From: Burkholderiales bacterium
GTDB lineage: Bacteria > Pseudomonadota > Gammaproteobacteria > Burkholderiales > Burkholderiaceae_C
Direction of reading: 5' to 3'
Length of the DNA: 64,000 nucleotides
Assembly (NCBI GenBank): GCA_016703325.1
Contig: JADJCH010000014.1
Span: 17,931-81,930, forward strand
Shown here: positions 18,399 through 41,207 of the stretch, piece after piece
Numbering within the stretch: position 1 is the first letter of the stretch
Layout: each line of letters starts with the position of its first letter
The notes under the pieces: generated by a model
Seen by the model: only the letters and a program-made list of their open reading frames with translations
What the model was told of the DNA's origin: nothing
The model's database searches: none
Made by a program: the position numbers and the translations under genes

Positions 18399-19859
<1,461 letters not shown>

Positions 19860-20045: not shown

Positions 20046-21338
20046 ATGTCCGACGTTCCGGTCCCGCCGCCTCCTGCCGCGTCCGCCACGCCAGCCGCTC
20101 CGGGTCGTACCCCTGAGGTGCGGCCATCCGCGCCGCTGCCGTTGGAGGATGCCGGCCCCTCCTCCTGGCTGGACAGCCTGCTGGCCGATCCGCCGCAGCC
20201 CGCTGCATCGTCCGAAGGTGCAGGCCTGCGTTGGCCTGCCTGGCGTGCACGTGCCGACGAGGCCACCGATTCCCGCCACCTCACGCCCTCCGGGCTGGAG
20301 CGACCGCGCCTGCAGGCCCGGGTCCGCTCGGATTGGCTGGAGGTGTGCCAGGGCGGCCTGCTGCTGCGCACCGTGCTGCTGGTGCACGGGGTCTTCGGCC
20401 TCGGCATGGCGCTGGGCTCGCCCGGCCTGGCGGACTGGCTGTTCAACCTTTCCTTCGCCACGCTGGGCTTGTTGCCGGCCACCCTGGCCTGGCTGGCCGG
20501 ATTGTGCGCGGCCCGGCAGATCTGGGGCCTGTGGCCGGCCTGGGCGCAATGGGGGGGTGTGGGGGCCTGGGGCGCCGCCTGCGCGTTGGCAGGGCAGGGG
20601 CTTTTGATGCTGTTCAGCCGCCGGCTGGGTGACGATGCGGGCGCGGCCCTGCCCACCTTGGCCTGGCTGGCGGTGGGTCTGATCGGCACGCTGCTGGCCA
20701 CGGTGGTGCTGTACTGGCTGCACCTGCGCCAGCGCCTGCGGTTGCCGGCAGCCACCCAGGCCCGGCTGGCAGAGTTGCAGTCGCGCATCCGGCCGCACTT
20801 CCTCTTCAACGCCCTCAACAGCGCGATTGCGCTGGTGCGGGTGGATCCGCATCGGGCCGAAGAGGTGCTGGAGGACCTGTCTGAGCTCTTCCGGGCCGCA
20901 CTGGCCGATGCGGGTGAGCAGGTGTCGCTGGGCGAGGAGATCGAACTCGCGCGGCGCTACCTGGCCATCGAGCAGGTGCGCTTCGGTCGGCGCATGCGGG
21001 TGCATTGGGCCCTGGACGGAGCGGCCGCACCGGCACGGGTGCCATCCCTGCTGTTGCAGCCGCTGGTGGAGAACGCGGTGCGCCACGGCGTTGAACCTGC
21101 CGATCGAGGCGGGGACCTGCACATCCGGACCCAGGTGCACCGGGGTCAGGTGCTGATCTCGATCACCAACACCCTGCCGCAGGGGCCGACCCGCCGGGGG
21201 CAGGGCATGGCGCTGCACAACGTGCGCGAACGCCTGTTCCTGCTGCACGATGTGACGATGCGCTTCGAGGCCGGCGAGATCGAAGGCGGCCGGTACCGGG
21301 TGCGCATCGCCGTGCCGCTGCAGTCCGCGCAGGCCTGA
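20046..21338 (+). CDS. LytS/YehU-type sensor histidine kinase, AlgZ/FimS-like
   Basis: [47 protein letters not shown]; adjacent to argH and a LytTR regulator. Confidence 0.9.
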
Positions 21339-21350
21339 GAAGGAGGGCTT

Positions 21351-22247
21351 GTGGAGCCACTGCGGGTGTTGATCGTCGACGACGAGGAACTGGCCCGGCT
21401 GCGCCTGCGCAGCCTGCTGGCCGACTGCATCAGCCCGCCCGGTCGCTTGGTGGGCGAGGCGGCCCATGCGGCCCAGGCGCTGCAGTGGCTGTCCCAGCAG
21501 CGCGCCGACCTGCTGCTGCTGGACATCCACATGCCGGGTCTGGACGGCATGCAGCTGGCCCGCCGCCTGCAGCAGACCTCACCCCGGCCGGCGGTGGTCT
21601 TTGTCACCGCTCATGCGGAACATGCGCTGCAGGCCTTTGAGGTTCAGGCCATCGACTACCTCACCAAGCCGGTGCGCCGCGCCCGCCTGCAGGAGGCGTT
21701 GGCCCGGGCGGCCGCCTGGCTCGAGCGTGACCGGGGAAGCGTGCAGCCTGCTGCTGCCCCATGGGCTGCGTCGGCCGGGGCGACGGTCGCAGGGCCGGTG
21801 GCTTCCCGGTCGGCGATGGAACCGGTGGAATCCGCGGGGGCACCGGTGCTGGTCGTCACCGATCGCGGCGAACGCGTGCGCGTCCCGTTGTCCGAGGTGC
21901 TCTACCTCAAGGCGGAGCAGAAGTACGTCACCCTGCGCACCGCCCGGCGCAGCTGGTTGCTGGACGACTCGCTGGCCGAGCTGGAAGCCCGCCTGGAAGG
22001 CCAGCCCTTCGTGCGCATCCATCGCAACGCCCTGGTGGCGCTGCATGCGGTGCAGTCCCTGGAGCGCCACCGCGGGGCGGAGCCGGCGCCTACGGGGTTC
22101 GACGCCGATGCCCCGGCCACCGATTTCGGCGCCGAGGGCCCGTCAGAGGCTGGTGGCTGGGCGGTGCACATCGCCGCGACCGGCGAGTGGCTGGCCGTGT
22201 CGCGGCGCCAGCTGGCGCAGGTGCGCAGCGCGCTGGATCGGCTCTGA
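21351..22247 (+). CDS. LytTR response regulator, AlgR-like
   Basis: [30 protein letters not shown] receiver domain; YLKAEQKYV and [10 protein letters not shown] LytTR motifs. Confidence 0.92.
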
Positions 22248-22682
22248 GCTGCTGCGTCGCCGGCGCAGGTGGCCGCCGGGTTTGAAGAATCCAGGTGTGA
22301 CCAGACGAATGAGATTGCAGCCTGGTCGGCGCATCTTGTAAGCAATTCAGTCGCGGTCGACCGGATCCCGGCTTCGCAATACTTCACGAATGGCGGGTCT
22401 CGGAGGGTGCGCCTCTCTGGGAAAACCGCCCATTCCCGACCGACCCGGGCCGGCAGTGAAAAAGTACAACCTGACACGGCAGGGCTGCCGGGTGCAGGCA
22501 TCCTTCATCCATCGAATCCATCGATCTGCATGCAACAGGCCGGAAGCTTGATTTCTCCGGCCCTGGGGAAGCCTTTTCGCCGATTTCCACCAGAAGTTTC
22601 GATGAGGATTTTCGGGTTTCTCTGAAAGTACTGATTCGATGTCTTTTTTTCGGTTTTTTTGGGTATCACAAAGGGGAATTCC

Positions 22683-24389
22683 ATGACGGACATGAAATTG
22701 CGCTGGTTTGCGTTGTCACTGATGACGCTGGCGATCACGGGCTGCGGGGGTGGTTCGGGAACCGCCGACGAAGCCGAACTGGACATGACCGACGAAGAGA
22801 TCGCCGCGGCCGTGGCGGACGGGACGATGACCGCTGCTGCCGCCGCGCGTTATGCCCGCACCTTGAACGTGGTGGTGAGTGGCAATGGCCAGGTCAGCAG
22901 CAGCCCGGCCGGCATCCAGTGCGGAGCCGGGGCGTCGGACTGCAGCGAAACCTACCGTCGGCGCAGCAAGGTGGCCCTCACCGCGAAGGCCACTGCAGGC
23001 GCAGCGTTCACCGGATGGTCGGGCGCCTGCAGCGGCAGCGCTCCCACCTGCACCGTCGATGTCAGGGGCAGCCGGACCGTGTCCGCCAACTTCTCCGGGG
23101 ATCCCGCGCCCAGCCCCACGCCTGCTCCGACGCCGAGCCCATCTCCCTCTCCCAGCCCGACGCCTGCGCCGACCCCGGCGCCGACGCCTGCCCCAACCCC
23201 CGCACCCACGCCGGCGCCCACACCGGCACCTACACCCGCTCCCACCCCTGCACCGACCCCAGCCCCCGCCCCGGCGACCGCCAACCTGTGCGACGGCCTG
23301 GTCACCGACAAGGTGGCCCATCCGATGGGAACGGTGACCAAGCCGGCACTGCTGGGCAGCTACACCGACCCGCAGTTCAAGACCACCATCCGTCGCGTCA
23401 CCGACGCGAAGGCTCAGTTCGGCGCCAGTTATGCCAAGCCGGTGTATTCGACGATGCCGGCCTGGAACGTCGATGAAACCTATCTGATCCTGTATGTTCC
23501 CGGCAGCGGCCATAAACTGTTCAACGGCAAGACTTATGCCTTCATCCGCAACCTGAGCATCAGCCCGGCGGATATTGAACATGTGTACTGGTCTGGTACC
23601 GATCCGGATGCGCTGTATTTCCCCAGCGGTTCAACCCTGAAGTTGTATCGGCCCAGCAGCAATACCACCGAGACGGTGAAAACGTTCACATCCTCGGTGA
23701 GTTTTGGCGGGGACCCGATTTATGGGGATTGGGCGTCCAAGGTGTACGGTTTCCAGGGCGGCAGCAGCGGCATTCTGTACAACGTGGACAGCGGGGTGCA
23801 GACCAACGGTGCGGGCAGCGGCACGCCGCGGGTGTCGGCATCGGGCCAGTTGTATGTGCAGGGCAAGAACGTCTACAGCGTGGCGGGCAACACCCTGCAG
23901 CGCACGATGACGCTCGACACCGGCGAGCACGGGGCCATCGGCAAGCTGGCCAACGGGCAGGACTTCTGGGCGGCAACGCAGTTCGACCTGTCGGGCAGCC
24001 GCAACGGCAACCTGATCGTCTACAACCTCACCACCGGTGTGGAGACGGCGGTGATCGGCCAGTCCAACGGCTGGGGATATCCGCGCACGGGCACCCACGT
24101 GTCGGCCCACGCGATCAAGAACCCGGGCTGGGTGGCGGTGTCCATGACGGGCAACCCCTCCGGGCAGGGCTACCTGGACCAGGAGATCGCCCTGGCCAAC
24201 GTCAACACCGGTGTGGTCTGCCGGGTGGCGCACCACCGCTCCTACGGGCAGGAAGGGACCATCGGCTACTGGGCCGAACCTCACGTCAACATCAGCCCCA
24301 GTGGCACGCGGATGATCTACGCCTCCGACTGGAACAACGGTTCGACGGTGGACACCTACGTGGTCGAGCTGCCCAGCTACAAGCCTTGA
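22683..24389 (+). CDS. Uncharacterised lipoprotein: InlB-B/bacterial-repeat-like domain, Pro-Thr/Ala linker, about 365-aa putative beta-propeller
   Basis: Lipobox ITG-C; [14 protein letters not shown]...FTGWSGAC...C...TVSANF repeat domain; PTPA x9; C-terminus [22 protein letters not shown] resembles a TolB/WD40-like blade. Confidence 0.8.
23157..23264 (+). repeat. Nine PTPA-coding 12-bp units, synonymously diversified
   Basis: Hand reading: all nine 12-mers differ at wobble positions. Confidence 0.85.
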
Positions 24390-24467
24390 ACGCAAACCTG
24401 CAGCATCGGTGCATTTCGTGCGACTTTGGACCGGGATGCACCGTTGCTGTCTGGATCGTCATCTTCG

Positions 24468-24512
24468 GGCCGGCCGGAGCGAGGCACAGTTCTCGCTGGC
24501 CGGCCGATTTTT
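24468..24512 (+). terminator. Candidate intrinsic terminator between the two lipoprotein genes
   Basis: GGCCGGCC..AGCGAG-loop-CTCGCT-GGCCGGCC followed by GATTTTT. Confidence 0.45.
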
Positions 24513-24551
24513 GAGTGGGGCCAGGCCACTGTCACGCATGGGAGTCTCTCG

Positions 24552-25838
24552 ATGAAGCTTGGAAACGGTTGCACGACACGCATGCGCCTGCGCCGCCTGT
24601 CACTGCTGATGGCTGCTGTGATGGCGGTCAGCGCCTGCGGCGGTGGGGGTGGATCTTCAGCAGAAGCGCCGGCTCCCGGGCCGTCGCCGGCGCCTGCGCC
24701 CTTCCCGACGGTGGATCCGAGCAACCTGTGCGAGAACCTGGTGCAGGATCAGGCGGCGCATCCGATGACGGCGGTGACCAAGCCGACTCTGCTGGGCAGC
24801 TACACCGACCCGAACTTCCTGACCACCGTTCGCCGCATCACCGATGCGAAGGCGCAGTTCAATGCCGACTACGCGAAGCCGGTGTACTCGACGATGCCTG
24901 CCTGGAATGCGGATGAAACCTACCTGATCCTGTATGTGCCGGGGCAAGGCCACAAGCTGTTCAACGGCAAGACCTACGCCTTCATCCGCAACCTGGAGAT
25001 CGACACCGCGGACATCGAGCATGTCTACTGGTCGTCCACCGACCCGGACCTGCTGTACTACCCCAACGGCCGTGCACTGATGGTGTACCACCCGAGCACC
25101 GACCAGTCCGAGACGCTGAAGACCTTCTCCGCCACGGACGTCAGCTTCGGTGGTGACCCGATCTATGGCGACTGGTCGTCCAACCTGTTCGGGTTCCAGT
25201 CCAACTCCGGACCCTTGCTGTGGTGGCGTACGTCGGGCGCGTTGGTCAACGGCCCGACCGGCACTGGCGCGCCGCAGATTTCGTCGTCCGGCGCCTACTA
25301 CGTGTTCGGCCAGAACCTCTATGACACATCGACCAACGCGCTGGTTCGGGCGATGACGATCAACGCCACCGAACACGGCGCCACCGGTCGGCTGGCCAAT
25401 GGCGACGACATCTGGGTGTCCACGCAGTTTGACCTGCCCGACGGCAGCAACGGCAACCTGATCGTCGAAAACCTGCGCACCGGCGCGGTCACGACGGTGA
25501 TCGGTGAAGCCAACGGCTGGGACTACCCGCGGGTGGGCACCCATGTGTCGGCCCATGCGGTCAAGAACCCGGGTTGGGTGGCGGTGTCGATGACGGGCAA
25601 CACCGAAGGGACCGACTACCTGGACCGTGAGATCGCCCTGGCCAACGTCAACACCGGAGTGGTCTGCCGGGTGGCGCACCACCGCTCCTATGGACAGGAA
25701 GGGAACATCGTCTACTGGGCCGAGCCGCATGTGAACATCAGCCCCAGCGGCACGCGCATGATCTTCGCCTCCGACTGGAACAACGGCTCCACCGTGGACA
25801 CCTACGTGGTCGAACTGCCCAGCTACCAGCAACCCTGA
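24552..25838 (+). CDS. Uncharacterised lipoprotein, paralog of the C-terminal domain of 22683-24389
   Basis: Lipobox VSA-C, short PAP linker, then a collinear match (NLC...HPM...TDP...[10 protein letters not shown]...[10 protein letters not shown]...[20 protein letters not shown]). An alternative start lies about 30 nt downstream. Confidence 0.82.
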   Translation: MKLGNGCTTRMRLRRLSLLMAAVMAVSACGGGGGSSAEAPAPGPSPAPAPFPTVDPSNLCENLVQDQAAHPMTAVTKPTLLGSYTDPNFLTTVRRITDAKAQFNADYAKPVYSTMPAWNADETYLILYVPGQGHKLFNGKTYAFIRNLEIDTADIEHVYWSSTDPDLLYYPNGRALMVYHPSTDQSETLKTFSATDVSFGGDPIYGDWSSNLFGFQSNSGPLLWWRTSGALVNGPTGTGAPQISSSGAYYVFGQNLYDTSTNALVRAMTINATEHGATGRLANGDDIWVSTQFDLPDGSNGNLIVENLRTGAVTTVIGEANGWDYPRVGTHVSAHAVKNPGWVAVSMTGNTEGTDYLDREIALANVNTGVVCRVAHHRSYGQEGNIVYWAEPHVNISPSGTRMIFASDWNNGSTVDTYVVELPSYQQP

Positions 25839-26029: not shown

Positions 26030-26105
<76 letters not shown>

Positions 26106-33598: not shown

Positions 33599-34306
33599 TC
33601 AACGCTGGGCCGCACTGTGCCCGGGCGCCGGGCCGGCCTCGAACTCCACTGCGATGCGGATGCGCGATCGCACCGGCTGGCCCTGCCACTCCCCGGGCGT
33701 GAAGCGGGCGGCCAGGAAGGCCTGCCGGGCGGCCTCCTGGAAAGGCGGCGGCAGGTCCACCTCCGATGACTCCACCCGCACCCGCTGCACGGCGCCGTGC
33801 TCGTCGATGAACAGCGTCAGCACGCCTTGCCAGTGGCCTTCAGGGGCTCCTTCGGGATAGGCCAGCAGCACCTCGGCGCTGGGCTCCGGTCCGCGGGTGA
33901 GGGAGCTGCGCGGCAGGTACTCGTCGCCCGCCTCACCCGGGCCGGGCGGGGCGGTGAGGGAGGCTGGTTCGGTCTGTGCCGTGGCCTCCGGCGCGGAGGT
34001 TGGTTTGGCAGCCTGCAGCGGGGCGTCCGGGTCTGCTGTAGCCTGCGCCGGCTGTTCCCGATCTGTCCTGGTGGCAGGTTCGGGAGAAGGCAGTGGGGCC
34101 TCGGCCAGCGGTCTCAGCGCCACCGCCACCTGCCGGGCTGCACGGGGCGCTGCGGTGGGCGTTCCGCCGCCCGGAGCCTGGCCCCACAGGCCCCAGGCTC
34201 CCAGCACCAGCAGGTGCAGCCATGCAACGGTGATCCACAGGGCGAACGGCGGGGGGCGCGGTGTGCCGTGGCCAGTGGTCGGGCTCAGTCGGTCAACTCT
34301 CGCCAC
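33599..34306 (-). CDS. TonB-like protein (TM anchor, Pro/Ala-rich spacer, TonB C-terminal domain)
   Basis: LWITVAWLHLLVL anchor; YP...VLTLFIDEHGAVQRVRV...FQEAARQAFLAARFTPG...VRSRIRIAVEF; GTG start overlaps the pilY1 stop. Confidence 0.75.
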   Translation of the reverse strand: MARVDRLSPTTGHGTPRPPPFALWITVAWLHLLVLGAWGLWGQAPGGGTPTAAPRAARQVAVALRPLAEAPLPSPEPATRTDREQPAQATADPDAPLQAAKPTSAPEATAQTEPASLTAPPGPGEAGDEYLPRSSLTRGPEPSAEVLLAYPEGAPEGHWQGVLTLFIDEHGAVQRVRVESSEVDLPPPFQEAARQAFLAARFTPGEWQGQPVRSRIRIAVEFEAGPAPGHSAAQR

Positions 34307-37300
34307 GAGGTGCGCCGGGCGTTGAAGATGGTGCTGCCGGCCACTCCGGTGGAGTCCTGCTGGCCGCCCGTCTGGTCGGCAAAGTTGAGGAAGGCCTTGA
34401 TGTTGCCCTGGCCATCGTCGAAGCGTTCGATGCCGACGATCATCGGGTTGGCGTAGGTGGCCATGCCGGTGACCGCACCGGTACTGATGTTGAACTGGTA
34501 CAGCGTTGAGCTGCCGCCGCCGCTGCACATGTCGGCCGATGGGCTGGTGCCGACAAAGGCCAGGATGCCGTTGCCCAGCGCCGTGGGGTTGATGGCGACC
34601 CGCTGGTTGGTGGGCAGTTCGGCATACCAACCCTTCTTGGTGGACCAGTCCACCGTCTGGGTGCTGTCGGTGGACAGGGTGATCTGGGTCAGTTGGGCCT
34701 TGCCTGCGGTGGTGGTCAGGTCACCCAGCCCGCTGCCTTCGCTGCTGCTCCAAGTGTCCTTGATCGAATAGATGCCCTGCTGGGAGCTGTCGCTCACGTC
34801 GGGGTCACCCAGGTAGCGGCCGGTGCCGAAGGAGATCACCGGAATGCTGCCGCTGCCGGTGGCCACTTCGTTGAGTGCCGGCTTGGTGGTGATCGGGCGG
34901 CCCGGTGTGCGGGCCAGCAACTGAGCCGCAACCTGGGTCACGCTGCCTGCAGCGTAGGTCGGCACGAAGCGCCAGAAGTTGCCCTGCATGTCGCCGGCGT
35001 AGAAGCGCAGCGCGGTGTTGTCAGAGCTGCTGGCCACCCAGGCATTGAGCTTCATGAGGTTGCTGGGTGCGGTGGCGCTGCCCACGCCGGTCTTGACCTC
35101 GCTGAGCAGCGTGCCGGTGAAGGCATCGAGCACGAAGAGGCGACCTTCGCCGTCGCCGGCATCGCCATTGATGCCGTTGCTGTTGTTCACGCCGGAGGTG
35201 AAGGCCACGACCCATTTGCCATCGGCGCTCTTGGTGATGACGGGATTGCCCATCGCCAGGCCGAGGTTGGCGTTGTGGATCACCTTGCCGTAGCCGGTGC
35301 CCGCCAGGTTCGGGAAGTGGCCAAACTCCCACAGCACCGCAGGCGATGCCGGGTCGGTGATGTCCAATGCGTAGTAAGCGCGGCCGCCCGCCCCCAGGCC
35401 GCCCACCAGGATGGTGCGCCATTCACCGCTCACATAGATGTCCGCCACCACCGGTGTGCCGTCGACGAAGTAGCGGTGGTTTCCGCCGTAGCTGCTGTCG
35501 GCCAGTTTCCAGAGGTTGGGGATCACCGCCGTGGGCACAAAGGCCCAGCGCTCGCTGCCGGCCGGGGTGGTGGTGGAGCCGCTCACGCTGCTGTCCACCT
35601 GGAAGGCGTGCAGCATGCCGTCGTTGGCGGCCGCAAACACCATCTTCATCCGGCTGGCCTTGCTGCTGACGTAGCTGTTGTAGCCGGCGTCGGCGTAGCT
35701 GAAGGGGGGCTTGCCGGCGTAGGCGGGGGCGGCGTTGACGATGTCGCCCAGCGCAGAACTGCGGCCGCGGAACAGCAGGGGTGTCGCCGTGGTGTTGTCG
35801 TTTTCGTAGGTGCTGGCGCCGCGCAGGTACTGGACCAGGTTGTCGCCGGTGACGAGATTCCGGTCTCCTTCACTCATCATTTCGTTGGTGCTGCATTGAC
35901 TCAGCCGTTCGCTGGCGCTGCTGCAGCGGCCGTCGAAAGACGCATTCAGCGCCGTGCTGCCGGTGTTGGACAGGTTGGCGTAGCTGAACTCACCCTTGGT
36001 ACCGTTCTGGTTGAACCAGATGTCGCGGCTGCCGCCCGCGGACAGTCGGGCGTCAAGTCGGGCCGCGGCGCTCCACACCGGTGTGCTGCTGCCCATCGTG
36101 GGCACGGTGTACGTGTTGGTGCTGGGGTTCAGCTGGTACTGGTAGGCCTTGAGGTCCCCGGACCAGGTACCGGAGGTGTAGCTGGGCAGAAACACCCAGC
36201 GGTCCGCGTCCACCGGAGTCTGTGTGCTGGAGGTGATGGCCGCAGCAGAGGCCGAGACGTCGCCAATGCGTCGGAAGGTGTCTGCAATTGCCGAGGCCAC
36301 TGCGGCGTGGTTGGAGGCCGAGTAATACTGGCCGCGCCCGTTCACGGCTGCGTGCCAGAGGTCGTCGATGTGGGTGGCGTCGCCTTCCGAGCCGGTATTG
36401 ATCGTGCCGGTGGGTACCGGCCAGGTCTTGCTGCCGGTGGCGCTCTTCAGGTCGGCCCAGTCGCTGGGTCGCAGGTAGCCGTTGAGGCCCAGTCCCAGGG
36501 TGAACAGGTTCATGTGCTGCCGGGTGTTCGGGTCGGGCAGCACCCCCTTGGCGTCGTCGCCGGCAACGGGCGGCAGCTCGTCGGCCAGGTCGGTGCGCAG
36601 GTCCTCCTGGTAGTAGTACTGCGCCACATCGGCCAGGGTGGGGGAGGCGTTGGCGCCGTTGTAGGGGCGCGGCTCGGCGGCATCCGCATCGCCGATCTGG
36701 GTGCGGCCGTCCAGTGCGTAGACCTGGCCGGTGTCGCTGTTCCAGTAGCCATCGGTGGTCAGCAGGGCATAGGCGCGCTGGCAGGTGTACTGGATCGGGG
36801 CGCTGCTGCCGGTGGTGGCGTAGTAGCGCCCCACCCGCGACAGGGTGCGGCGCAGGGGGGTGCTGCTGGAGGCCGAGGAGGTGTACAGCAGGTCATAGAA
36901 GCTGGAGCGCTGGGTGCCGCTGAACTCGCCCGTGCCGAGGAACCAGGATCCGGACGACGTGCTGTCGCTGATGCGGGTGAATCCGAGGCGGATCTCCGCG
37001 CCCACGCCTCGCATCGCCTTGCCGGCGGCCGACCGCATCGCGAGCTGGCGGGTGCGGTAGTAGGAGTACCAGTTGGCGTACTTTTGCGCGAGCGTTGACG
37101 TGGCCTCGATGGTCACACTGGTAAAGCGCCCGGACTCCGACCGATTCATGCAGTAGCGGTAGGTGTCGGAGCTGGTGTCGACGTTGCCGTTGACGTCATA
37201 GCGCCAGTCGCGCGGGGTGGCGGTGCTGTCGTTGAACACGTAGTAGGTGGAGCCAGCCAGGCTCACCGCGCCGGTGCGGGCAAAGCCATCGGTCCAGGCC

Positions 37301-37641
37301 GCCGTGAAGGTGGAGTCTCCAGAGGAGCTGCCGTCGGCTTTCGGCGGCGCGGGGTATTCCTCGTTGGGGTCGAAGGCGACCCCGTTGCACCAGGCCGAGA
37401 GCATGCCGTGGGTCGGCGCGCCGTTCAGGTCATCGGGCATGTAGTCCCGCGTCATCGATCCGGAGTTGTCCAGGATGAACATGACGTTCGGCTTGGGGTT
37501 GGTCGCCAGGCTCAGCGGCGCCTGGGCGACGCTGGCCCACTGGGACGAGGCCGGAGCGCTGAACAGCCCGCAGACGGCCAATGCAGCGAACAGGCTCGGG
37601 GTTCGCTGCAGGACAGGGCGGCGGGGGGCGGCGGCGGACAT
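34285..37641 (-). CDS. pilY1: Type IV pilus tip adhesin PilY1/PilC (vWA-like N-terminus, beta-propeller C-terminus)
   Basis: PNVMFILDNSGSM, LGDIVNAAP, AANDGMLHAF, GRAYYALDITDP, YAGDMQGNFWRF, GTGRYL. Confidence 0.93.
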   Translation of the reverse strand: MSAAAPRRPVLQRTPSLFAALAVCGLFSAPASSQWASVAQAPLSLATNPKPNVMFILDNSGSMTRDYMPDDLNGAPTHGMLSAWCNGVAFDPNEEYPAPPKADGSSSGDSTFTAAWTDGFARTGAVSLAGSTYYVFNDSTATPRDWRYDVNGNVDTSSDTYRYCMNRSESGRFTSVTIEATSTLAQKYANWYSYYRTRQLAMRSAAGKAMRGVGAEIRLGFTRISDSTSSGSWFLGTGEFSGTQRSSFYDLLYTSSASSSTPLRRTLSRVGRYYATTGSSAPIQYTCQRAYALLTTDGYWNSDTGQVYALDGRTQIGDADAAEPRPYNGANASPTLADVAQYYYQEDLRTDLADELPPVAGDDAKGVLPDPNTRQHMNLFTLGLGLNGYLRPSDWADLKSATGSKTWPVPTGTINTGSEGDATHIDDLWHAAVNGRGQYYSASNHAAVASAIADTFRRIGDVSASAAAITSSTQTPVDADRWVFLPSYTSGTWSGDLKAYQYQLNPSTNTYTVPTMGSSTPVWSAAARLDARLSAGGSRDIWFNQNGTKGEFSYANLSNTGSTALNASFDGRCSSASERLSQCSTNEMMSEGDRNLVTGDNLVQYLRGASTYENDNTTATPLLFRGRSSALGDIVNAAPAYAGKPPFSYADAGYNSYVSSKASRMKMVFAAANDGMLHAFQVDSSVSGSTTTPAGSERWAFVPTAVIPNLWKLADSSYGGNHRYFVDGTPVVADIYVSGEWRTILVGGLGAGGRAYYALDITDPASPAVLWEFGHFPNLAGTGYGKVIHNANLGLAMGNPVITKSADGKWVVAFTSGVNNSNGINGDAGDGEGRLFVLDAFTGTLLSEVKTGVGSATAPSNLMKLNAWVASSSDNTALRFYAGDMQGNFWRFVPTYAAGSVTQVAAQLLARTPGRPITTKPALNEVATGSGSIPVISFGTGRYLGDPDVSDSSQQGIYSIKDTWSSSEGSGLGDLTTTAGKAQLTQITLSTDSTQTVDWSTKKGWYAELPTNQRVAINPTALGNGILAFVGTSPSADMCSGGGSSTLYQFNISTGAVTGMATYANPMIVGIERFDDGQGNIKAFLNFADQTGGQQDSTGVAGSTIFNARRTSWRELTD

Positions 37642-37690
37642 GGACGGACTCCGGGGGGTAAGCGATCGGGGTGCTGGCATCAACACTGCA

Positions 37691-38389
37691 TCAGAAGTGC
37701 ACCACCGTGTCGGTGTAGCTGACGGTGTTGCGTGCGCCCTTGGCGCGCACCACGATGCGGTAGTACTGCGTCAGCACCGAGCTGCCGAAGCGCTGCGAGC
37801 TGGCGTAGGTCAGATCGTCGCGCTGGGCGGCGGTGGTGACGGTGGCCGACATCGGTCGGGCGCACTGCAGCGTGCCACCGCTGGCGTTGGGATCGCCTTC
37901 GGCATCGCACAGCCGCAGGATGAGAAATCGTGCCGTCACCTGGTTGGGCAGGCTGTCCGGGGTGTTGCGTGGCTTCAGGCAGTTTGCGTGGCCGCCACAG
38001 TCGTTGTTGTCCCAGTCAATGCGCACGTCGGCGCTGTTGCTGCTGGTGCCTGTGGGGTCGAGTCGGGCGGTCTGGCTGTTGCCGGTGCCGCCGTTGGCGT
38101 AGTAGCCGAGCGTGGTTTGGTTGCTGTGCAGGTCCGTGCCGCCGACCTTGCCGCTCAGCCAGACGATGGCCTGTCGGGTGGCTTCGTCTGCGGCCAGCAG
38201 CGTGTCCTGCTTGAAGCCCAGGTTGCCCAGCAGGATGCTGCCGGTGTCCACCGCACGGATCAGGGCCACCGCGGCCAGCGACAAGGCCACCAGCGTGATG
38301 AGCGAGAACAGCAGCGACACACCACGGCTGGCGCGGTGCAGGCCCGACCGGGTCCGGTGCATGAGGGGTGAAGGCGGATGCGGGGTCAT
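37691..38389 (-). CDS. pilX: Type IV minor pilin PilX
   Basis: RG-VSLLFSLITL prepilin without Glu+5, typical of PilX; position in the operon. Confidence 0.85.
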   Translation of the reverse strand: MTPHPPSPLMHRTRSGLHRASRGVSLLFSLITLVALSLAAVALIRAVDTGSILLGNLGFKQDTLLAADEATRQAIVWLSGKVGGTDLHSNQTTLGYYANGGTGNSQTARLDPTGTSSNSADVRIDWDNNDCGGHANCLKPRNTPDSLPNQVTARFLILRLCDAEGDPNASGGTLQCARPMSATVTTAAQRDDLTYASSQRFGSSVLTQYYRIVVRAKGARNTVSYTDTVVHF

Positions 38390-39612
38390 GACTGCCAGAG
38401 CATGTTGCGCAGCGGCACCAGGGTCTCGAAGACCTTGTAGCGGTAGTGCGTGTAGGGTTTGTCGGCCTCGCTGCTGTCCAGCCCGGGCACGCTCAAGCAG
38501 GCCCAGGTGCTGCCGTCCGGGCTCCAGACCGGGTAGTTGCCGGTGGCCGCCGGGCCGCTGCTGCAGGCCGTTTCATTGGGGCGTTCGTTGGTGACGGCCT
38601 GCTTCTCGAAGTGGCTGCTGCGGGCCACCACGGCCACCCGTATCGCCACGATCTGGGCCCATTCGGCCGGAGTGGTCGGTGGGGTGTTGTTCCAGGTGTC
38701 GGCGATGCGGTCGGCGTTGCTGTCCTTGCCGTAGACCGCTTGCAGGTCTACCACCTGCGGCTGGATCGCCTCGGCCGCCGGGGTGGCCGTGTTGGCGCTG
38801 CCGACGCTGAACTCGCGGGTGCTGCGCTGCAGCGAGTTGCCCGCAATCGAATAGACCCGGGTGCGCAGCACCCCGATGTTGAGCAGGTGGCTGCCGGGTG
38901 GGAAGTTCACCGCGGTGCTGTCCACGCCTGCGTAGAGGCTGCCCGGGTTGGCGGCGCCCTCGTGATTCCAGGGGCCATCGGTACCGGCTTCGTGTTTCAC
39001 CACACCCAGGGCCGCGTTGTCGCGGTCGGCGCTGGCGTTGAACAGGTTGCACCACAGGGTGTCGGAGAAGTTCTGCGGCACCGCCAGCAGCAGATCCCCC
39101 TTGCGGATGCCGTGGTGGATGGCGCCGTCCAGGTCGAACTGGGTGGCGTCGCGCCGGTGGCCCTTGAGTTTGAGCGGCAGCGCGAAGTCTTTGCCCGCGC
39201 TGGAATGCAGGGTCAGCTCGTCGGGGGCGCCGTCGTCGCCATTCCTGATCACCGCCGCGGTCAGACGGAACTCGCCGCGGCCTTCGGCCAGCAGCTTGTA
39301 GCGCACCAGGCAGCCAGCCCCACCACCGGCGGTGAGGCCGAAACCCGCGGCCTGCAGGTCACGCTGCAGGGTGTGCAGCGCCACCGCGCCATTGATCTGG
39401 GCGTCTGCACCGGAGGTGGTGTTGCGCTTCTGGCTGTCGAAGAGGATGGCCACCTGGGTGATCAGCAGCACCGCAAACAGGCCGATGGCCATGCCGACCA
39501 GCAGCTCGACCAGGGTCACGCCGCGCTGATCCATGCCAGGGCGCACGCCTGGGCGCACGCCTGGGTGTCGGCCGGGCCGGGCGTTCAAGGGGCGGTAGAC
39601 GCAGGCGGGCAT
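38386..39612 (-). CDS. pilW: Type IV minor pilin PilW
   Basis: QRG-VTLVELLVGMAIG, DLQAAGFG, QAVYGKDSNAD, IRVAVVARS, RYKVFETLVPLRN. Confidence 0.88.
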   Translation of the reverse strand: MPACVYRPLNARPGRHPGVRPGVRPGMDQRGVTLVELLVGMAIGLFAVLLITQVAILFDSQKRNTTSGADAQINGAVALHTLQRDLQAAGFGLTAGGGAGCLVRYKLLAEGRGEFRLTAAVIRNGDDGAPDELTLHSSAGKDFALPLKLKGHRRDATQFDLDGAIHHGIRKGDLLLAVPQNFSDTLWCNLFNASADRDNAALGVVKHEAGTDGPWNHEGAANPGSLYAGVDSTAVNFPPGSHLLNIGVLRTRVYSIAGNSLQRSTREFSVGSANTATPAAEAIQPQVVDLQAVYGKDSNADRIADTWNNTPPTTPAEWAQIVAIRVAVVARSSHFEKQAVTNERPNETACSSGPAATGNYPVWSPDGSTWACLSVPGLDSSEADKPYTHYRYKVFETLVPLRNMLWQS

Positions 39613-39617
39613 GGCAC

Positions 39618-40061
39618 TCAGCTGATGCTGTTGGCGTTGATCGAGGTGACGGTGCTGAAGGCGTGGCTGCCTTCGGAGGGCACCGACCAGCTGATGGAGA
39701 TCTCCACCCGCCCGCTGGCCTGCGGGGCAATGGTGTAGCTGGCACCGGGAAGGCGTGCAGCCAGGCGGGATGCCCAGGCCTGGCAATTGGCGTGCGAGGC
39801 GCAGTTGGCGGTGGTGTAGGACTGCAGGTTGGGGCTGTCCGCCCACATCGTGCCCACCAGATCGCTGGCCAGGTAGGCCGCATCGGCGCGGAACTTGGCG
39901 CCGGTGTTGGCCCGCATCATGGAAGCCTGCAGCCCGACCAGGCCGAGGGTGGCCAGGGTGAAGATCAGCAGGGCGATCAGCGCTTCGATCATCGCGAAGC
40001 CGCGGTGGCCACAGTTGATGCGATTGCAGCGATTGCGCTGCGGGGCTGGGGCGGGTTTCAT
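39618..40061 (-). CDS. pilV: Type IV minor pilin PilV
   Basis: RG-FAMIEALIALLIF...GLVGLQ...RADAAYLA. Confidence 0.87.
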   Translation of the reverse strand: MKPAPAPQRNRCNRINCGHRGFAMIEALIALLIFTLATLGLVGLQASMMRANTGAKFRADAAYLASDLVGTMWADSPNLQSYTTANCASHANCQAWASRLAARLPGASYTIAPQASGRVEISISWSVPSEGSHAFSTVTSINANSIS

Positions 40062-40089
40062 CTGGGGTCTCACGCAGGGGGCTGGGTGA

Positions 40090-40740
40090 TCAGGAGGCCG
40101 GGCAGGCACGGGCGTCGTCGCTGCGCAGGCCGTGGATGCAGCTGCGCACACCGCCGCCGGCATCGATGCGCACCTGCAGCTTCACCGAGGGGCTGGTGGG
40201 GTGGGTGATCTCGATGCAGCGGATCGGGCTCGCGTTGGCGGGCGAGCCCAGGCTGTTGAACATCACCTGGGTAGAAGAGGCGGTGGCTGCACAGCGCTCG
40301 GTCTTCACCTGAACCGTCACGTCCGGGAAACCGTTGCCCTTGGCCTGCTTGTCCAGGATCTGCGGTGCCGCACTGCCGCCGGCGGCCTGTTCGCACTTGC
40401 CGGCCGGGCTGGCCAGGCTCACCACCCAGGACGCGTTGGTGCTGGAGAGGGCGCAGGCGGAGGTCAACTGGCCCGGCTCGTTGGTCGGGTTGGTCGGGTT
40501 GGTGACCAGGGAGAAATACACGTTCTGGTTGCGCCGCACCGCCTCGGCACGGGCCTTCTGCAGCCCGGTGCTGATCGATTCGGCCGCGCTGCGCACCTGC
40601 AGGTTGCGCAGCCACTCGGTCATGCTGGGCGCCAGCGTGACCAGCAGCACGCCGATCATCACCAGCACCACCATCAGCTCGATGGGGGTGAAGCCCCGGT
40701 GGCTCCAGTGGCTGCGGCGGGCGGTTGTTCGGTCAGTCAT
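40090..40740 (-). CDS. fimT: FimT/FimU (GspH-like) minor pilin
   Basis: RG-FTPIELMVVL, ARAEAVRRNQNV; alternative GTG start at 40752. Confidence 0.85.
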   Translation of the reverse strand: MTDRTTARRSHWSHRGFTPIELMVVLVMIGVLLVTLAPSMTEWLRNLQVRSAAESISTGLQKARAEAVRRNQNVYFSLVTNPTNPTNEPGQLTSACALSSTNASWVVSLASPAGKCEQAAGGSAAPQILDKQAKGNGFPDVTVQVKTERCAATASSTQVMFNSLGSPANASPIRCIEITHPTSPSVKLQVRIDAGGGVRSCIHGLRSDDARACPAS

Positions 40741-40745
40741 GGGCT

Positions 40746-41207
40746 TCAGCACTCGCTGCCCTTGACCAGCCAGCAGGTCTTGGGTGATGAGTTGTAGTCT
40801 GTGGTCTTGAAGTAGCGGGTGGTCTGACTGCCGTTGTGGTCGATGCGGTAGGTGTGGGTTCCGCCGCCCGCGGTGCTGCTGGTGGCCTGGAGGTAGTAGC
40901 CCTGGTCGGTGTTGGTGAGCGTGCAGGTGACGGTGAAGTATTTCAGCCCGGTGGGCACCGCCGGGCCGCAGGTGGTGGCGCCGTACTTGCGGTTGTCCTG
41001 GTAGTACTGCTCCATCACCACCCGCTGGTTGCTCAGCTGGGTGAAGGCCTCGGGCAGGCGGCCGCGGCGCAGGTAGTCGGTGTACGAGGGCAGGGCCACC
41101 GCGGCCAGGATGCCGATCACCGCCACGGTGATCATCAGCTCGATCAGCGTGAAGCCCCCGCTGCGGTGCAGCGCGCAGGTGGGGCGAATACGGGCAGGGA
41201 CGGCCAT
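40746..41207 (-). CDS. pilE: Type IV minor pilin PilE
   Basis: [39 protein letters not shown]. Confidence 0.9.

Follow-up and report, generated by a model that had tools for sequence, protein, structure and literature searches.

A tandem pair of exported lipoproteins with a PL22-like beta-propeller, candidate extracytoplasmic polysaccharide depolymerases

Two adjacent lipoprotein genes of a wastewater Leptothrix, here called A and B, lie in the window (the whole stretch of DNA analysed, 64 kb) and encode a shared C-terminal domain that profile alignments (92-96% probability) and a structural model place, at the superfamily level, as a distant homolog of PL22 oligogalacturonate lyase. We propose that A and B are extracytoplasmic metal-dependent polysaccharide depolymerases, probably lyases, and we put the probability of this reading at about 0.5. 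A polysaccharide-directed role, already suggested in the original prediction, is the best-supported reading of the pair, on the basis of the PL22 homology, fusions to carbohydrate-binding modules (CBMs), exopolysaccharide (EPS)-locus neighbourhoods, and a copy of the domain in a phage tail fibre.

Results

Organization of the gene pair

As had been predicted, the pair is situated between an algR-like regulator gene and a tRNA-Ala gene; ORFs, Pfam, ARAGORN, and Rfam agree on the coordinates and neighbours. The features of the block are as follows.

20046-21338, + strand: LytS-type histidine kinase (Pfam His_kinase)
21351-22247, + strand: LytTR response regulator (Pfam Response_reg and LytTR)
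22248..22682, + strand: intergenic region upstream of A, 435 bp (GC 0.56 versus ~0.70 in the flanks)
22673-22678, + strand: ribosome-binding site of gene A, GGGGAA (direct reading)
22683..24389, + strand: gene A, lipoprotein of 568 aa (ORF, ATG 22683 to stop 24389)
22683..22745, + strand: signal peptide and lipobox of A, L-A-I-T-G-C21 (direct reading; Cys codon 22743-22745)
22929..23099, + strand: divergent InlB B-repeat (Pfam Flg_new_2, PF18998), A aa 83-139
23103..23282, + strand: PT/PA-rich linker of 60 aa, A aa 141-200 (P/T/A/S composition)
23277..24386, + strand: propeller domain of A (BLASTP versus B, conservation)
24552..25838, + strand: gene B, lipoprotein of 428 aa (ORF, ATG 24552 to stop 25838)
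24636-24638, + strand: Cys codon of the B lipobox, A-V-S-A-C29 (direct reading)
24717..25835, + strand: propeller domain of B (AlphaFold2, Foldseek, hhalign, conservation)
26030..26105, - strand: tRNA-Ala(CGC), the downstream bound of the block (ARAGORN; Rfam, 59 bits)

Protein A runs from a signal peptide and lipobox through the InlB B-repeat and the PT/PA linker to the PL22-like propeller, and protein B has a signal peptide, a lipobox, and a linker of ~30 aa ahead of its propeller. The start of gene B coincides with that of a database protein (P0001, 99% identical). The lipoprotein call for A and B is a motif reading of the lipobox: both sequences fit the pattern [LVI][ASTVI][GAS]C (LAITG-C21 in A and MAVSA-C29 in B), and residue +2 is Gly in each. 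The B-repeat scored 28 bits (E 2.1e-6; Pfam gathering cut-off, 23.6), and part of the linker is encoded by an imperfect 12-nt tandem array (23157-23280). The Pfam match and the 60-aa linker of A are in keeping with the claim that only one of the two proteins carries an InlB-B-like repeat and a long PT/PA stalk.

The two proteins were 71% identical across 370 aa (BLASTP, E = 0). When identity was calculated in segments along the domain, it stood at 0.80-0.93 over the initial ~90 and final ~100 residues and fell to 0.43-0.45 between domain residues 151 and 210, so the predicted collinear domain with near-identical ends and a divergent middle was borne out. The conserved motifs that had been singled out (21 residues whose letters are not repeated here, and YWAEPH) are present in both A and B.

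Fold of the shared domain and its relationship to PL22

The shared domain has no model in Pfam, NCBIfam, or PHROG, and at that level the original statement that it belongs to no named family holds. Family and PDB sequence searches with A and B returned only the B-repeat and artefacts of the low-complexity linker (Trypan_PARP, TonB). The propeller of B was taken as the modelled domain, and its residue numbering (H220, H276, etc.) is used throughout. The AlphaFold2 model had a pLDDT of 95.5 and a pTM of 0.94 and was all-beta, with ~26 strands. A Foldseek search of the PDB with this model ranked 3pe7 first (E 1.6e-13, TMq 0.64) and 3c5m second and third, followed by WDR5. Both 3PE7 (YeOGL) and 3C5M (VPA0088) are PL22 oligogalacturonate lyases. 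The model thus has a seven-bladed fold like that of 3PE7/3C5M, as expected from the predicted beta-propeller, and in the comparison with PL22 that had been suggested, PL22 proved to be the best PDB fold match.

Sequence comparisons pointed in the same direction. The family HMM weakly matched 3pe7 (E 0.13), exactly over the RVAxH...Q/Y-x-x-H/E-P-H segments. Profile alignment with hhalign against PL22 gave a probability of 74.8% with 47 family sequences, 92.3% (E 5.6e-7) with 237 domains against 5 PL22 sequences, and 93.0% (E 3.4e-7) with 237 domains against ~120 PL22 sequences; the enlarged PL22 profile added little because the 120 matches listed were all at least 62% identical. In global mode the probability rose to 96.3% over 314 columns, and the alignment was collinear throughout, with the N-terminal DP..G..v.RlT and C-terminal SD...Y..ELP motifs included. 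Pfam PF14583 stayed below threshold for A, B, and every member tested (4 of 47 touched it, best E 0.12), and Pectate_lyase22 was the Pfam family touched most often by individual members.

PL22 has so far been a family of few members, cytoplasmic lyases that act on oligosaccharides. It shares with the domain family a seven-bladed beta-propeller of ~370-390 aa and, among conserved residues, the RvA.H motif, three metal-ligand positions, and the Gln position. The ligands are His/His/His plus Gln in PL22, whereas the domain family has His/Glu/His plus Tyr. PL22 proteins are cytoplasmic, but the domain family, judging by its lipoboxes or signal peptides and its conserved pair of Cys residues, is exported and, unlike PL22, is often multidomain (CBM, Ig, and PKD modules). 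The gene neighbours also differ: kduI, kduD, and kdgM for the PL22 genes that were fetched, versus GT4, DUF218, FemAB-like, and XrtA-system genes for the domain family.

Candidate active site

The codons of the candidate site and of the conserved Cys pair are listed here.

A, + strand, candidate site: H416 23928-23930, H472 24096-24098, Y529 24267-24269, E532 24276-24278, H534 24282-24284
A, + strand, conserved Cys: C203 23289-23291, C513 24219-24221
B, + strand, candidate site: H220 25374-25376, H276 25542-25544, Y333 25713-25715, E336 25722-25724, H338 25728-25730
B, + strand, conserved Cys: C5 24729-24731, C317 25665-25667

The Mn2+ site of PL22 reportedly consists of His287, His353, His355, and Gln350, with His242 as the Bronsted base and Arg217 as a further residue of note; we verified these positions on the YeOGL sequence (P0289). 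In the alignment to PL22, H276 corresponds to H287, E336 to H353, H338 to H355, and Y333 to Q350. Two of the four metal-ligand positions (H276 and H338) are therefore identical and E336 and Y333 are substitutions, so that the domain lacks the PL22 site as such and has conserved residues at all four positions. Across 237 domains, H276 was retained in 218, E336 in 217, H338 in 218, Y333 in 229, and H220 in 227. Losses were coupled: all 19 sequences without H276 also lacked E336 and 17 of them lacked H338, and each of the 10 sequences without H220 was also without H276 and E336. In raw HMMER alignments the site residues were kept even in members as distant as ~25% identity, encoded by a phage and by an alphaproteobacterial plasmid. 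H220 is located before strand A of the blade preceding the metal-site blades. Its partner in the hhalign alignments is H234 of PL22, and an equivalence to H242 would take a 2-residue shift that depends on how the strand register is read. R217 of PL22 falls in a stretch that hhalign left unaligned, with no domain counterpart aligned. The conservation of these positions suggests that the domain binds metal, and the replacement of His by Glu and of Gln by Tyr may alter the metal or the chemistry.

Distribution and genomic associations of the domain family

The domain is not an orphan, as it is found in ~1,600 clusters (50% identity) across many phyla, where its distribution is patchy rather than universal. 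Members are common in bacteria of activated sludge, soil, and sediment, including Burkholderiales, Rhodocyclales, Competibacter, Myxococcota, Acidobacteriota, and Chloroflexota. A hydrophobic N-terminus was present in 168 of 244 homologs, C5 was kept in 183 of 237 domains, and C317 was nearly invariant; the lipoboxes, N-termini, and conserved Cys pair together predict that the family is exported. A PEP-CTERM tail was found in no family member. Homologs have the domain fused to CBM9, CBM96, Laminin_G_3, PKD, Calx-beta, and Ig modules, and also to FG-GAP and LRR modules, and in many of them an InlB B-repeat module is joined to the propeller.

EPS-type genes were located within 8 kb of the family member in 25 of 79 genome loci, with at least two kinds in 16; two thirds of the loci were without them. 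The commonest neighbours encode DUF218 (10), FemAB-like acetyltransferase (8), and GT4 (8) proteins, together with four UDP-glucose dehydrogenases, and polysaccharide deacetylases also occur among them. The DUF218 gene directly adjoins the family member in 9 of 10 loci. At one locus (L081), family members reside inside an XrtA/PEP-CTERM EPS locus, with TIGR03007, TIGR03018, TIGR03016, and TIGR03015 above cut-off, and a member on Chelatococcus pTAD1 has the same setting according to RefSeq names. Homologs P0035 and P0117 are found in unrelated neighbourhoods. No EPS-type genes were detected in the 64-kb window, and A and B are not members of an XrtA locus.

Only 1 phage record among 50,697 contained the domain. 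In this protein, LUCX_246 of the Xanthomonas jumbo phage LucasX (1172 aa), a tail-fibre PHROG matches aa 18-304 and the propeller occupies aa 331-764, with the site residues intact and a TM of 0.83 to the model of the B propeller. The domain is thus distal to the tail-fibre part, in the manner of phage tail-fibre/tailspike depolymerases and receptor-binding tips. Classical phage depolymerases are beta-helix trimers, not propellers, and the tip of a tail fibre may serve for binding instead of catalysis.

Discussion

Proposed function

In the mechanism that we favour, the exported lipoproteins A and B would use their C-terminal seven-bladed propeller, distantly homologous to PL22, to hold an altered PL22-type metal centre made up of His276, Glu336, and His338, with Tyr333 nearby. 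The conserved His220 would open the preceding blade, at the place of the catalytic base proposed for PL22. Such a centre would most likely serve to cut an extracytoplasmic polysaccharide with the help of the metal, and the PL22 analogy points to beta-elimination adjacent to a uronic acid. Candidate substrates would be the cell's own exopolysaccharide or a sheath-type polymer, or that of floc neighbours, which the proteins might trim or release in the way that AlgL-, PelA-, or PslG-type enzymes do elsewhere. The proteins may differ in reach and substrate preference, because their tethers differ (B-repeat and 60-aa PT stalk versus short linker) and so do their variable blades. Of the suggested display at two heights on the cell surface, the sequences show the lipoboxes and the unequal lengths of the linkers. 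For A and B, we infer the metal binding, the lyase chemistry, the substrate, the cellular face, and the regulation by LytTR.

AlgL (alginate), PelA, PslG, and BcsZ are EPS-locus-encoded polymer-processing enzymes. The domain family would be analogous to them in that the gene for an exported enzyme lies within, or next to, genes that make and export polysaccharide (~20-30% of family loci), but their folds are unrelated to the domain and the pair in the window adjoins no EPS gene. A broader proposal, which we regard as tentative and leaning toward doubtful, is that the family is a polysaccharide lyase family in its own right, or else an extracellular branch of PL22 that diverged deeply, with a His/His/Glu metal centre; that its dedicated task is to trim or release exopolysaccharides of the XrtA/PEP-CTERM type and related ones of flocs, biofilms, or sheaths, acting with DUF218 proteins; that it serves the jumbo phage as a tail-fibre depolymerase; and that the Leptothrix tandem copies are two specificities reshuffled by gene conversion.

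Several of the same observations would also fit a non-catalytic pair of glycan-binding adhesins or lectins that bind matrix polysaccharide and tether cells to EPS, sheath, or floc, in which case a metal held at the His/Glu/His site would form the bridge to hydroxyls or carboxylates of the sugar. Consistent with this idea are the stalk-like linkers of the lipoproteins, the InlB B-repeat, the fusions of homologs to adhesin-type modules (Ig, PKD, FG-GAP, LRR), and the copy at a phage tail-fibre tip, the site of receptor-binding domains; the EPS-locus neighbourhoods suit a matrix protein equally well. There is precedent in Bap1/RbmC of Vibrio cholerae, described in the literature as a secreted beta-propeller adhesin that engages the exopolysaccharide of its own cell (VPS). 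The Bap1/RbmC propellers are eight-bladed and not known to be catalytic, and homology between them and the domain was not detected. We nevertheless consider binding without catalysis unlikely: the closest relative in structure and sequence is an enzyme, the aligned conserved residues are the metal ligands of that enzyme, and a buried near-invariant His/His/Glu set with an invariant His, lost en bloc in a minority clade, is more typical of a catalytic centre; moreover, fused CBMs would be redundant on a lectin.

To a similar degree improbable, in our estimation, is the same fold with another chemistry, that is, a hydrolase that depends on a metal and attacks a glycan or a glycoconjugate (for example as a glycosidase, or by stripping acyl, pyruvyl, or peptide substituents as an esterase or amidase), for which the His-to-Glu change would mark a switch of metal and mechanism. 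The His/His/Glu set with Tyr, unlike that of PL22, is reminiscent of the 2-His-1-carboxylate arrangement found in many hydrolases and oxygenases, no equivalent of R217 was aligned, and the polysaccharide deacetylase and FemAB-like acyl/peptidyl transferase neighbours imply that the associated polymers are decorated. Against it, the homology is to a lyase, no hydrolase ranked above PL22 in the PDB fold search, and UDP-glucose dehydrogenase genes near several members suggest, as weak evidence, uronic-acid polymers, which are lyase substrates. A propeller that serves in the periplasm as a scaffold or in protein-protein interactions (TolB/WD40/PD40-like) and takes no part in glycan biology seems very improbable. 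Generic WD40 propellers were strong Foldseek matches (TM 0.47-0.56, E ~1e-10), the family HMM touched a WD-repeat protein at E 0.003, and 1 of 47 members touched PD40 (Pfam, E 0.15); Pfam gave no WD40 or PD40 match for A or B. PL22 outranked every WD40 match in Foldseek, however, and the invariant polar and metal-type residues of the family, the CBM fusions, the linkage to EPS loci and DUF218, and the phage tail-fibre copy all argue for more than a scaffold.

The floc and biofilm exopolysaccharides of wastewater are chemically poorly defined, and to our knowledge few enzymes that cut them have been described. If the depolymerase reading is true, a fold, an active site, and an activity open to assay could be assigned to ~1,600 clusters of "hypothetical proteins", and a depolymerase family tied to XrtA/PEP-CTERM loci would aid polymer analysis and the manipulation of flocculation or biofouling. 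PL22 would gain an exported branch whose metal ligands differ, which bears on the evolution of lyase metal chemistry. The recurrent adjacency to DUF218 provides a functional lead for that unexplained domain.

Possible regulation, strain variation, and expression of the pair

The kinase and regulator upstream of A are AlgZ/AlgR-like, and near-identical proteins bear the source name "response regulator AlgR". They lie directly upstream of the lipoprotein pair in the window, in a conspecific genome (L090), and in the nearest non-conspecific relative (L089), and are possible regulators of the pair. The 22248..22682 region is the presumed promoter/regulatory region of gene A. A promoter scan of its + strand found no consensus sigma-70 promoter, and the promoter and terminator scan gave nothing exceeding shuffled expectation. 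AlgR-box-like 7/9 matches noted there by eye were near chance expectation and were set aside.

The original prediction had called the pair the most accessory-looking block of the window, a description that found no support: the pair occupies the same locus in the conspecific genome and in the more distant relative, island repeats are absent, and its GC3 is normal (0.83-0.84), although the family is patchily rather than universally distributed among phyla. The low GC of the pair is attributable to low GC1, i.e. to amino-acid composition. A genomic island was likewise rejected: the tRNA end is not repeated in direct orientation at the flanks, and an integrase is absent. The counterpart of A is 99.1% identical in L090 and 88% identical in L089, and the L089 ortholog of B is 89-90% identical; in L089 the pair is followed by a third paralog, a DUF218 gene, and three genes for GT4.

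In L090 the propeller of B has been overwritten by that of A, so that the same propeller is on both tethers, which indicates gene conversion between the two genes in that strain. Gene conversion between A and B within the window was considered and rejected, because identical-codon fractions fluctuated between 0.42 and 0.89 without delimiting a clear tract and the end-versus-middle pattern follows the family-wide constraint. The divergent middle is also the variable region of the family, and different central specificity blades in A and B, as had been suggested, are thus plausible; the conspecific strain with one propeller on both tethers is a counterexample. Two apparent RNA joints (21991>26344 and 22818>24831, run X2) amounted to 20 letters of one contig each and were dismissed as assembly noise. 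Contigs from two RNA libraries cover both genes, and in run X13 gene A was covered ~50-60x versus 13-20x for the flanks.

Two lipoproteins with a common propeller domain

The original prediction had placed two lipoproteins with a common domain at 22683-25838, between an algR-type regulator and tRNA-Ala, one copy bearing an InlB-B-like repeat and a PT/PA stalk, and each of these elements was recovered. The two genes are as follows.

22683-24389, + strand, gene A, ATG to stop, 568 aa, preceded by the RBS GGGGAA
24552-25838, + strand, gene B, ATG to stop, 428 aa, with the same start as the database protein P0001

P0001 is 99% identical to B. By motif reading, a lipobox closes the signal peptide of both products (A, LAITG-C21; B, AVSA-C29), and the proteins align over 370 aa at 71% identity (BLASTP, E = 0). 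The propeller domains occupy residues 199-568 of A (23277-24386) and 56-428 of B (24717-25835). Residues 83-139 of A form a divergent InlB B-repeat (Pfam Flg_new_2, 28 bits versus a cut-off of 23.6) and residues 141-200 a 60-residue P/T/A/S linker ahead of the common domain; the linker of B has only ~30 residues. An imperfect 12-nt tandem array of ~9 copies (23157-23280) codes for part of the PT/PA linker of A. The copy number of such arrays often differs among strains, and the linker region differs from that of A in the A ortholog of a more distant locus, L089. Upstream of the pair are a LytS-type kinase gene and then a LytTR response regulator gene, with a 435-bp region ahead of A; tRNA-Ala(CGC) follows B on the - strand.

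The common domain had no match in Pfam, NCBIfam, PHROGs, or PDB sequence searches, as was anticipated when no named family could be recognized. Among scored candidates, 338 clusters (90% identity) passed; the representatives at 50% identity numbered 1,587 with E ≤ 1e-3 and 646 with E ≤ 1e-10, and 392 stretches with a family match were found in 185,579 species genomes. The carriers are Beta- and Gammaproteobacteria, Myxococcota including Sorangium, Acidobacteriota, Chloroflexota, Patescibacteria, Actinomycetota, and one spirochaete. The distribution is patchy, the top species-representative match is just 70% identical, and almost every member carries the database name "hypothetical protein". 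Cultured carriers include Ideonella lacteola DXS29W, Thiomonas delicata DSM 16361, Chelatococcus daeguensis TAD1, Parachitinimonas caeni, Sorangium cellulosum So ce26, and Sulfurifustis variabilis. Many are multidomain, with partners that include Flg_new/Flg_new_2, He_PIG, Big_9, Calx-beta with DUF11, CBM9, CBM96, Laminin_G_3, PKD repeats, fn3 with Big_7, FG-GAP, and LRR. Multicopy clusters occur in 8 of 79 genome loci, with three copies each in a Competibacter MAG and a Comamonas MAG, and the A/B locus itself is present in wastewater, activated-sludge, and biofilm metagenomes. The source names of near-identical proteins assign the window to Leptothrix sp. MAGs.

Similarity to PL22 oligogalacturonate lyases

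The B propeller was modeled with AlphaFold2 from a 47-sequence alignment at very high confidence (pLDDT 95.5, pTM 0.94); the model has ~26 strands, in keeping with the propeller proposed earlier. The top PDB structure matches were two oligogalacturonate lyases of polysaccharide lyase family 22 (PL22), 3pe7 (YeOGL; E 1.6e-13, TM 0.64) and 3c5m. Independently of the fold search, the family HMM matched 3pe7 weakly (E 0.13), with 'RVAhHrs...' opposite 'RVARHDT...RQVTHPHPSFTPDDKQILFTSDV'. For profile-profile comparison we assembled a PL22 set of genes from plasmid records together with YeOGL itself (P0289). The small family alignment gave a probability of 74.8% against PL22, 237 family domains gave 92.3% (E 5.6e-7, 148 columns), and a larger PL22 set gave 93.0% (E 3.4e-7). 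In global mode the probability was 96.3%, and 314 columns were collinear, the N-terminal 'DP..G..v.RlT' motif among them. Of the Pfam families, single members touched Pectate_lyase22 most often (4/47, best E 0.12), and none of the 47 members searched had a significant match to it. We conclude that the family and PL22 share ancestry, yet the family falls outside PL22 as now modeled.

Candidate metal site

The positions of YeOGL R217, H242, H287, Q350, H353, and H355 were verified on the P0289 sequence. We take H287, Q350, H353, and H355 to be its Mn2+ ligands and H242 to be the proposed base. These residue roles reportedly originate from Abbott et al. 2010. In the alignment of PL22 to the family (numbering of the B propeller domain, window 24717-25835), H287 pairs with H276, H353 with E336, H355 with H338, and Q350 with Y333, and among 237 domains these family residues are conserved in 218 (H276), 217 (E336), 218 (H338), and 229 (Y333). 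H220 is conserved in 227 of the 237. All 19 sequences without H276 also lack E336, 17 of the 19 also lack H338, and the 10 sequences without H220 all lack both H276 and E336. Thus, H276, E336, H338, and H220 are kept or lost as a single unit. H322 varies independently of this set, which is intact at only ~25% identity to B in a phage member and in an alphaproteobacterial plasmid member. In the model, H220 lies just ahead of the inner strand in the blade before those of the metal site, a position where PL22 would have H242; hhalign pairs H220 with PL22 H234 rather than H242, and no aligned family partner for PL22 R217 was found in the profile-profile alignments. Being aligned, conserved, and co-lost, the residue set points to a PL22-like candidate metal center with altered ligands, predicted to be His/Glu/His with Tyr in the A/B family versus His/His/His with Gln in PL22.

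In a subclade of ~9 sequences, Leu/Gln/Asn replace His276/Glu336/His338 and the remaining fold is kept; its members are candidate noncatalytic derivatives, either pseudo-enzymes or binding proteins.

Export, genomic neighborhoods, and a phage copy

PL22 enzymes are cytoplasmic, and the PL22 gene copies that we fetched adjoin kduD, kduI, and kdgM. In contrast to this cytoplasmic location beside pectin-type kdu/kdg genes, the A/B family is predicted to be exported, on the basis of lipobox-like motifs (85/244 homolog N-termini), hydrophobic N-termini (168/244), and a conserved Cys pair (C5 in 183/237 domains, C317 nearly invariant). For each match, the closest two flanking ORFs per side were counted as neighbors.

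Table. Commonest gene families among 281 neighbor ORFs at 79 genome loci.
DUF218: 10
FemAB-like Acetyltransf_6: 8
GT4 glycosyltransferases: 8
NAD-dependent epimerase/dehydratase: 6
Polysacc_synt_2: 5
UDP-glucose dehydrogenase: 4

In local profile searches, 25 of the 79 loci had one or more EPS-type genes no farther than 8 kb away, and 16 had at least two kinds; EPS-type context was not found in about two thirds of the 79, and the window holds no EPS-type genes across its 64 kb. In 9 of the 10 DUF218 loci, which span Proteobacteria and Acidobacteriota, DUF218 immediately adjoins a family member, and the two form a conserved two-gene linkage. DUF218 genes (ElyC/SanA/YdcF-type) stand beside members at loci L011, L012, L020, L030, L032, L035, L037, L040, L066, L081, and L089; some of these pairs are co-oriented and closely spaced, and the others converge at a distance of 3-17 bp. 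At L081, two paralogs and the DUF218 gene are inside an XrtA/PEP-CTERM-type locus, where other genes score above the NCBIfam cut-offs of four XrtA/PEP-CTERM-system models (chain-length determinant, tyrosine autokinase, outer-membrane protein, and ATPase). Another member, carried on Chelatococcus daeguensis pTAD1, is flanked on one side by sugar-nucleotide genes and on the other by genes with the RefSeq names of XrtA-system FemAB and deacetylase.

In the viral structure library the best match, closer than PL22, was A0A8E5NQ64 (E 3.4e-22, TM 0.83), and tblastn matched a single one of 50,697 phage records, the Xanthomonas jumbo phage vB_XciM_LucasX.

L092:5990-9508, LUCX_246, 1172 aa, after a "host specificity protein"

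Residues 18-304 of LUCX_246 match several tail-fibre PHROGs, and residues 331-764 are an A/B-type propeller with the site residues intact. Its presence in a tail-fibre protein places the domain at the point of contact between phage and host surface glycans.

Proposed function

The best-supported reading is that the A and B pair are exported enzymes of PL22 ancestry that depend on a metal to cleave glycans. They would probably be lyases cutting next to uronic acids, and their target would be an extracellular polysaccharide, handled in the manner of the processing enzymes of EPS loci. A generic scaffold propeller is one rival, and generic WD40 propellers do appear in the PDB structure search, ranked after PL22 with TM values of 0.47-0.56. 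The other rivals are a noncatalytic, EPS-binding adhesin and a hydrolase or esterase built on the same scaffold. The fold and superfamily of these putative enzymes are known, and the family itself appears to be undescribed in the libraries and literature searched; the aspects that set it apart and appear to be undescribed are the predicted exported location, the altered candidate ligand set, the DUF218/XrtA-locus linkage, and the phage tail-fibre copy.

Divergence of A and B

The near-identical ends and more divergent middle noted earlier were borne out in 30-residue windows, where A/B identity was 0.80-0.93 at both domain ends and 0.43-0.45 at domain residues 151-210. Column conservation across the family follows the same profile (~0.6-0.7 versus 0.4), and no clean tract was found in the synonymous-codon identity of the window genes. 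Gene conversion between A and B within the window was rejected on these grounds, and the profile is attributed to constraint with a variable region; the variable blades correspond to domain residues ~120-215.

At the conspecific locus L090, 14 flanking proteins are 97-100% identical in the same order, and gene A is 99.1% identical to that of the window. The propeller of the second gene (L090:10001-11287) is 97% identical to window A, 98% to L090 A, and 73% to window B, and B-like sequence is retained in the signal peptide, the linker, and the C-terminal ~8 residues. This pattern marks a gene-conversion allele, a derived state in which B was converted by A, and the population is thus polymorphic for A+B versus A+A'. 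The pair may be displayed at two heights on the surface and may have two specificities, as proposed earlier; the L090 allele shows that two tethers persist though both propellers are the same.

At the more distant L089 (L089:1-13210; kinase 64% and regulator 59% identical to the window), orthologs of both A (88%) and B (89-90%) follow the LytTR gene, and the A/B split is therefore old. The block there goes on past the pair with one more paralog, its third (42-44% identical), a DUF218 gene, three genes for GT4 enzymes, and one for an epimerase, all absent from the window. The pair is better conserved than the adjoining kinase and regulator, from either strong constraint or transfer between lineages. 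At the argH 5' end, 71 nt (window 19788-19858, L089:1-71) are 98.6% identical versus ~72% for the rest of the region; this stretch sits at the contig end and may be a chimeric assembly end. In the metagenome run X2, single contigs join 21991/26344 (skipping 4352 bases) and 22818/24831 (skipping 2012). With only 20 letters on the shorter side, these joints are likely assembly noise; a variant without the block is possible.

Expression and other features of the window

Contigs from two RNA libraries span both A and B. In one RNA library (X13), contig depth, which is only a hint, was ~50-60x over A, compared with 13-20x in the flanking sequence and 5-11x over B. ARAGORN also called the following tRNA.

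18704-18801, + strand, tRNA-Gln, 98 nt

The call is probably a false positive, since Rfam found no tRNA at these positions and they lie inside the argH coding region (- strand, ~18402-19859). The AlgZ/AlgR-like kinase and regulator genes are followed, at a distance of ~8 kb, by a minor-pilin and PilY1 operon (34288-41207, - strand).

34288-37686, - strand, PilY1
38389-39846, - strand, PilW-like gene
40093-40752, - strand, GspH/FimT-like gene

In Pseudomonas the equivalent minor-pilin/PilY1 operon is under AlgR control. PilY1 is a second propeller protein of the window, unrelated to A and B.
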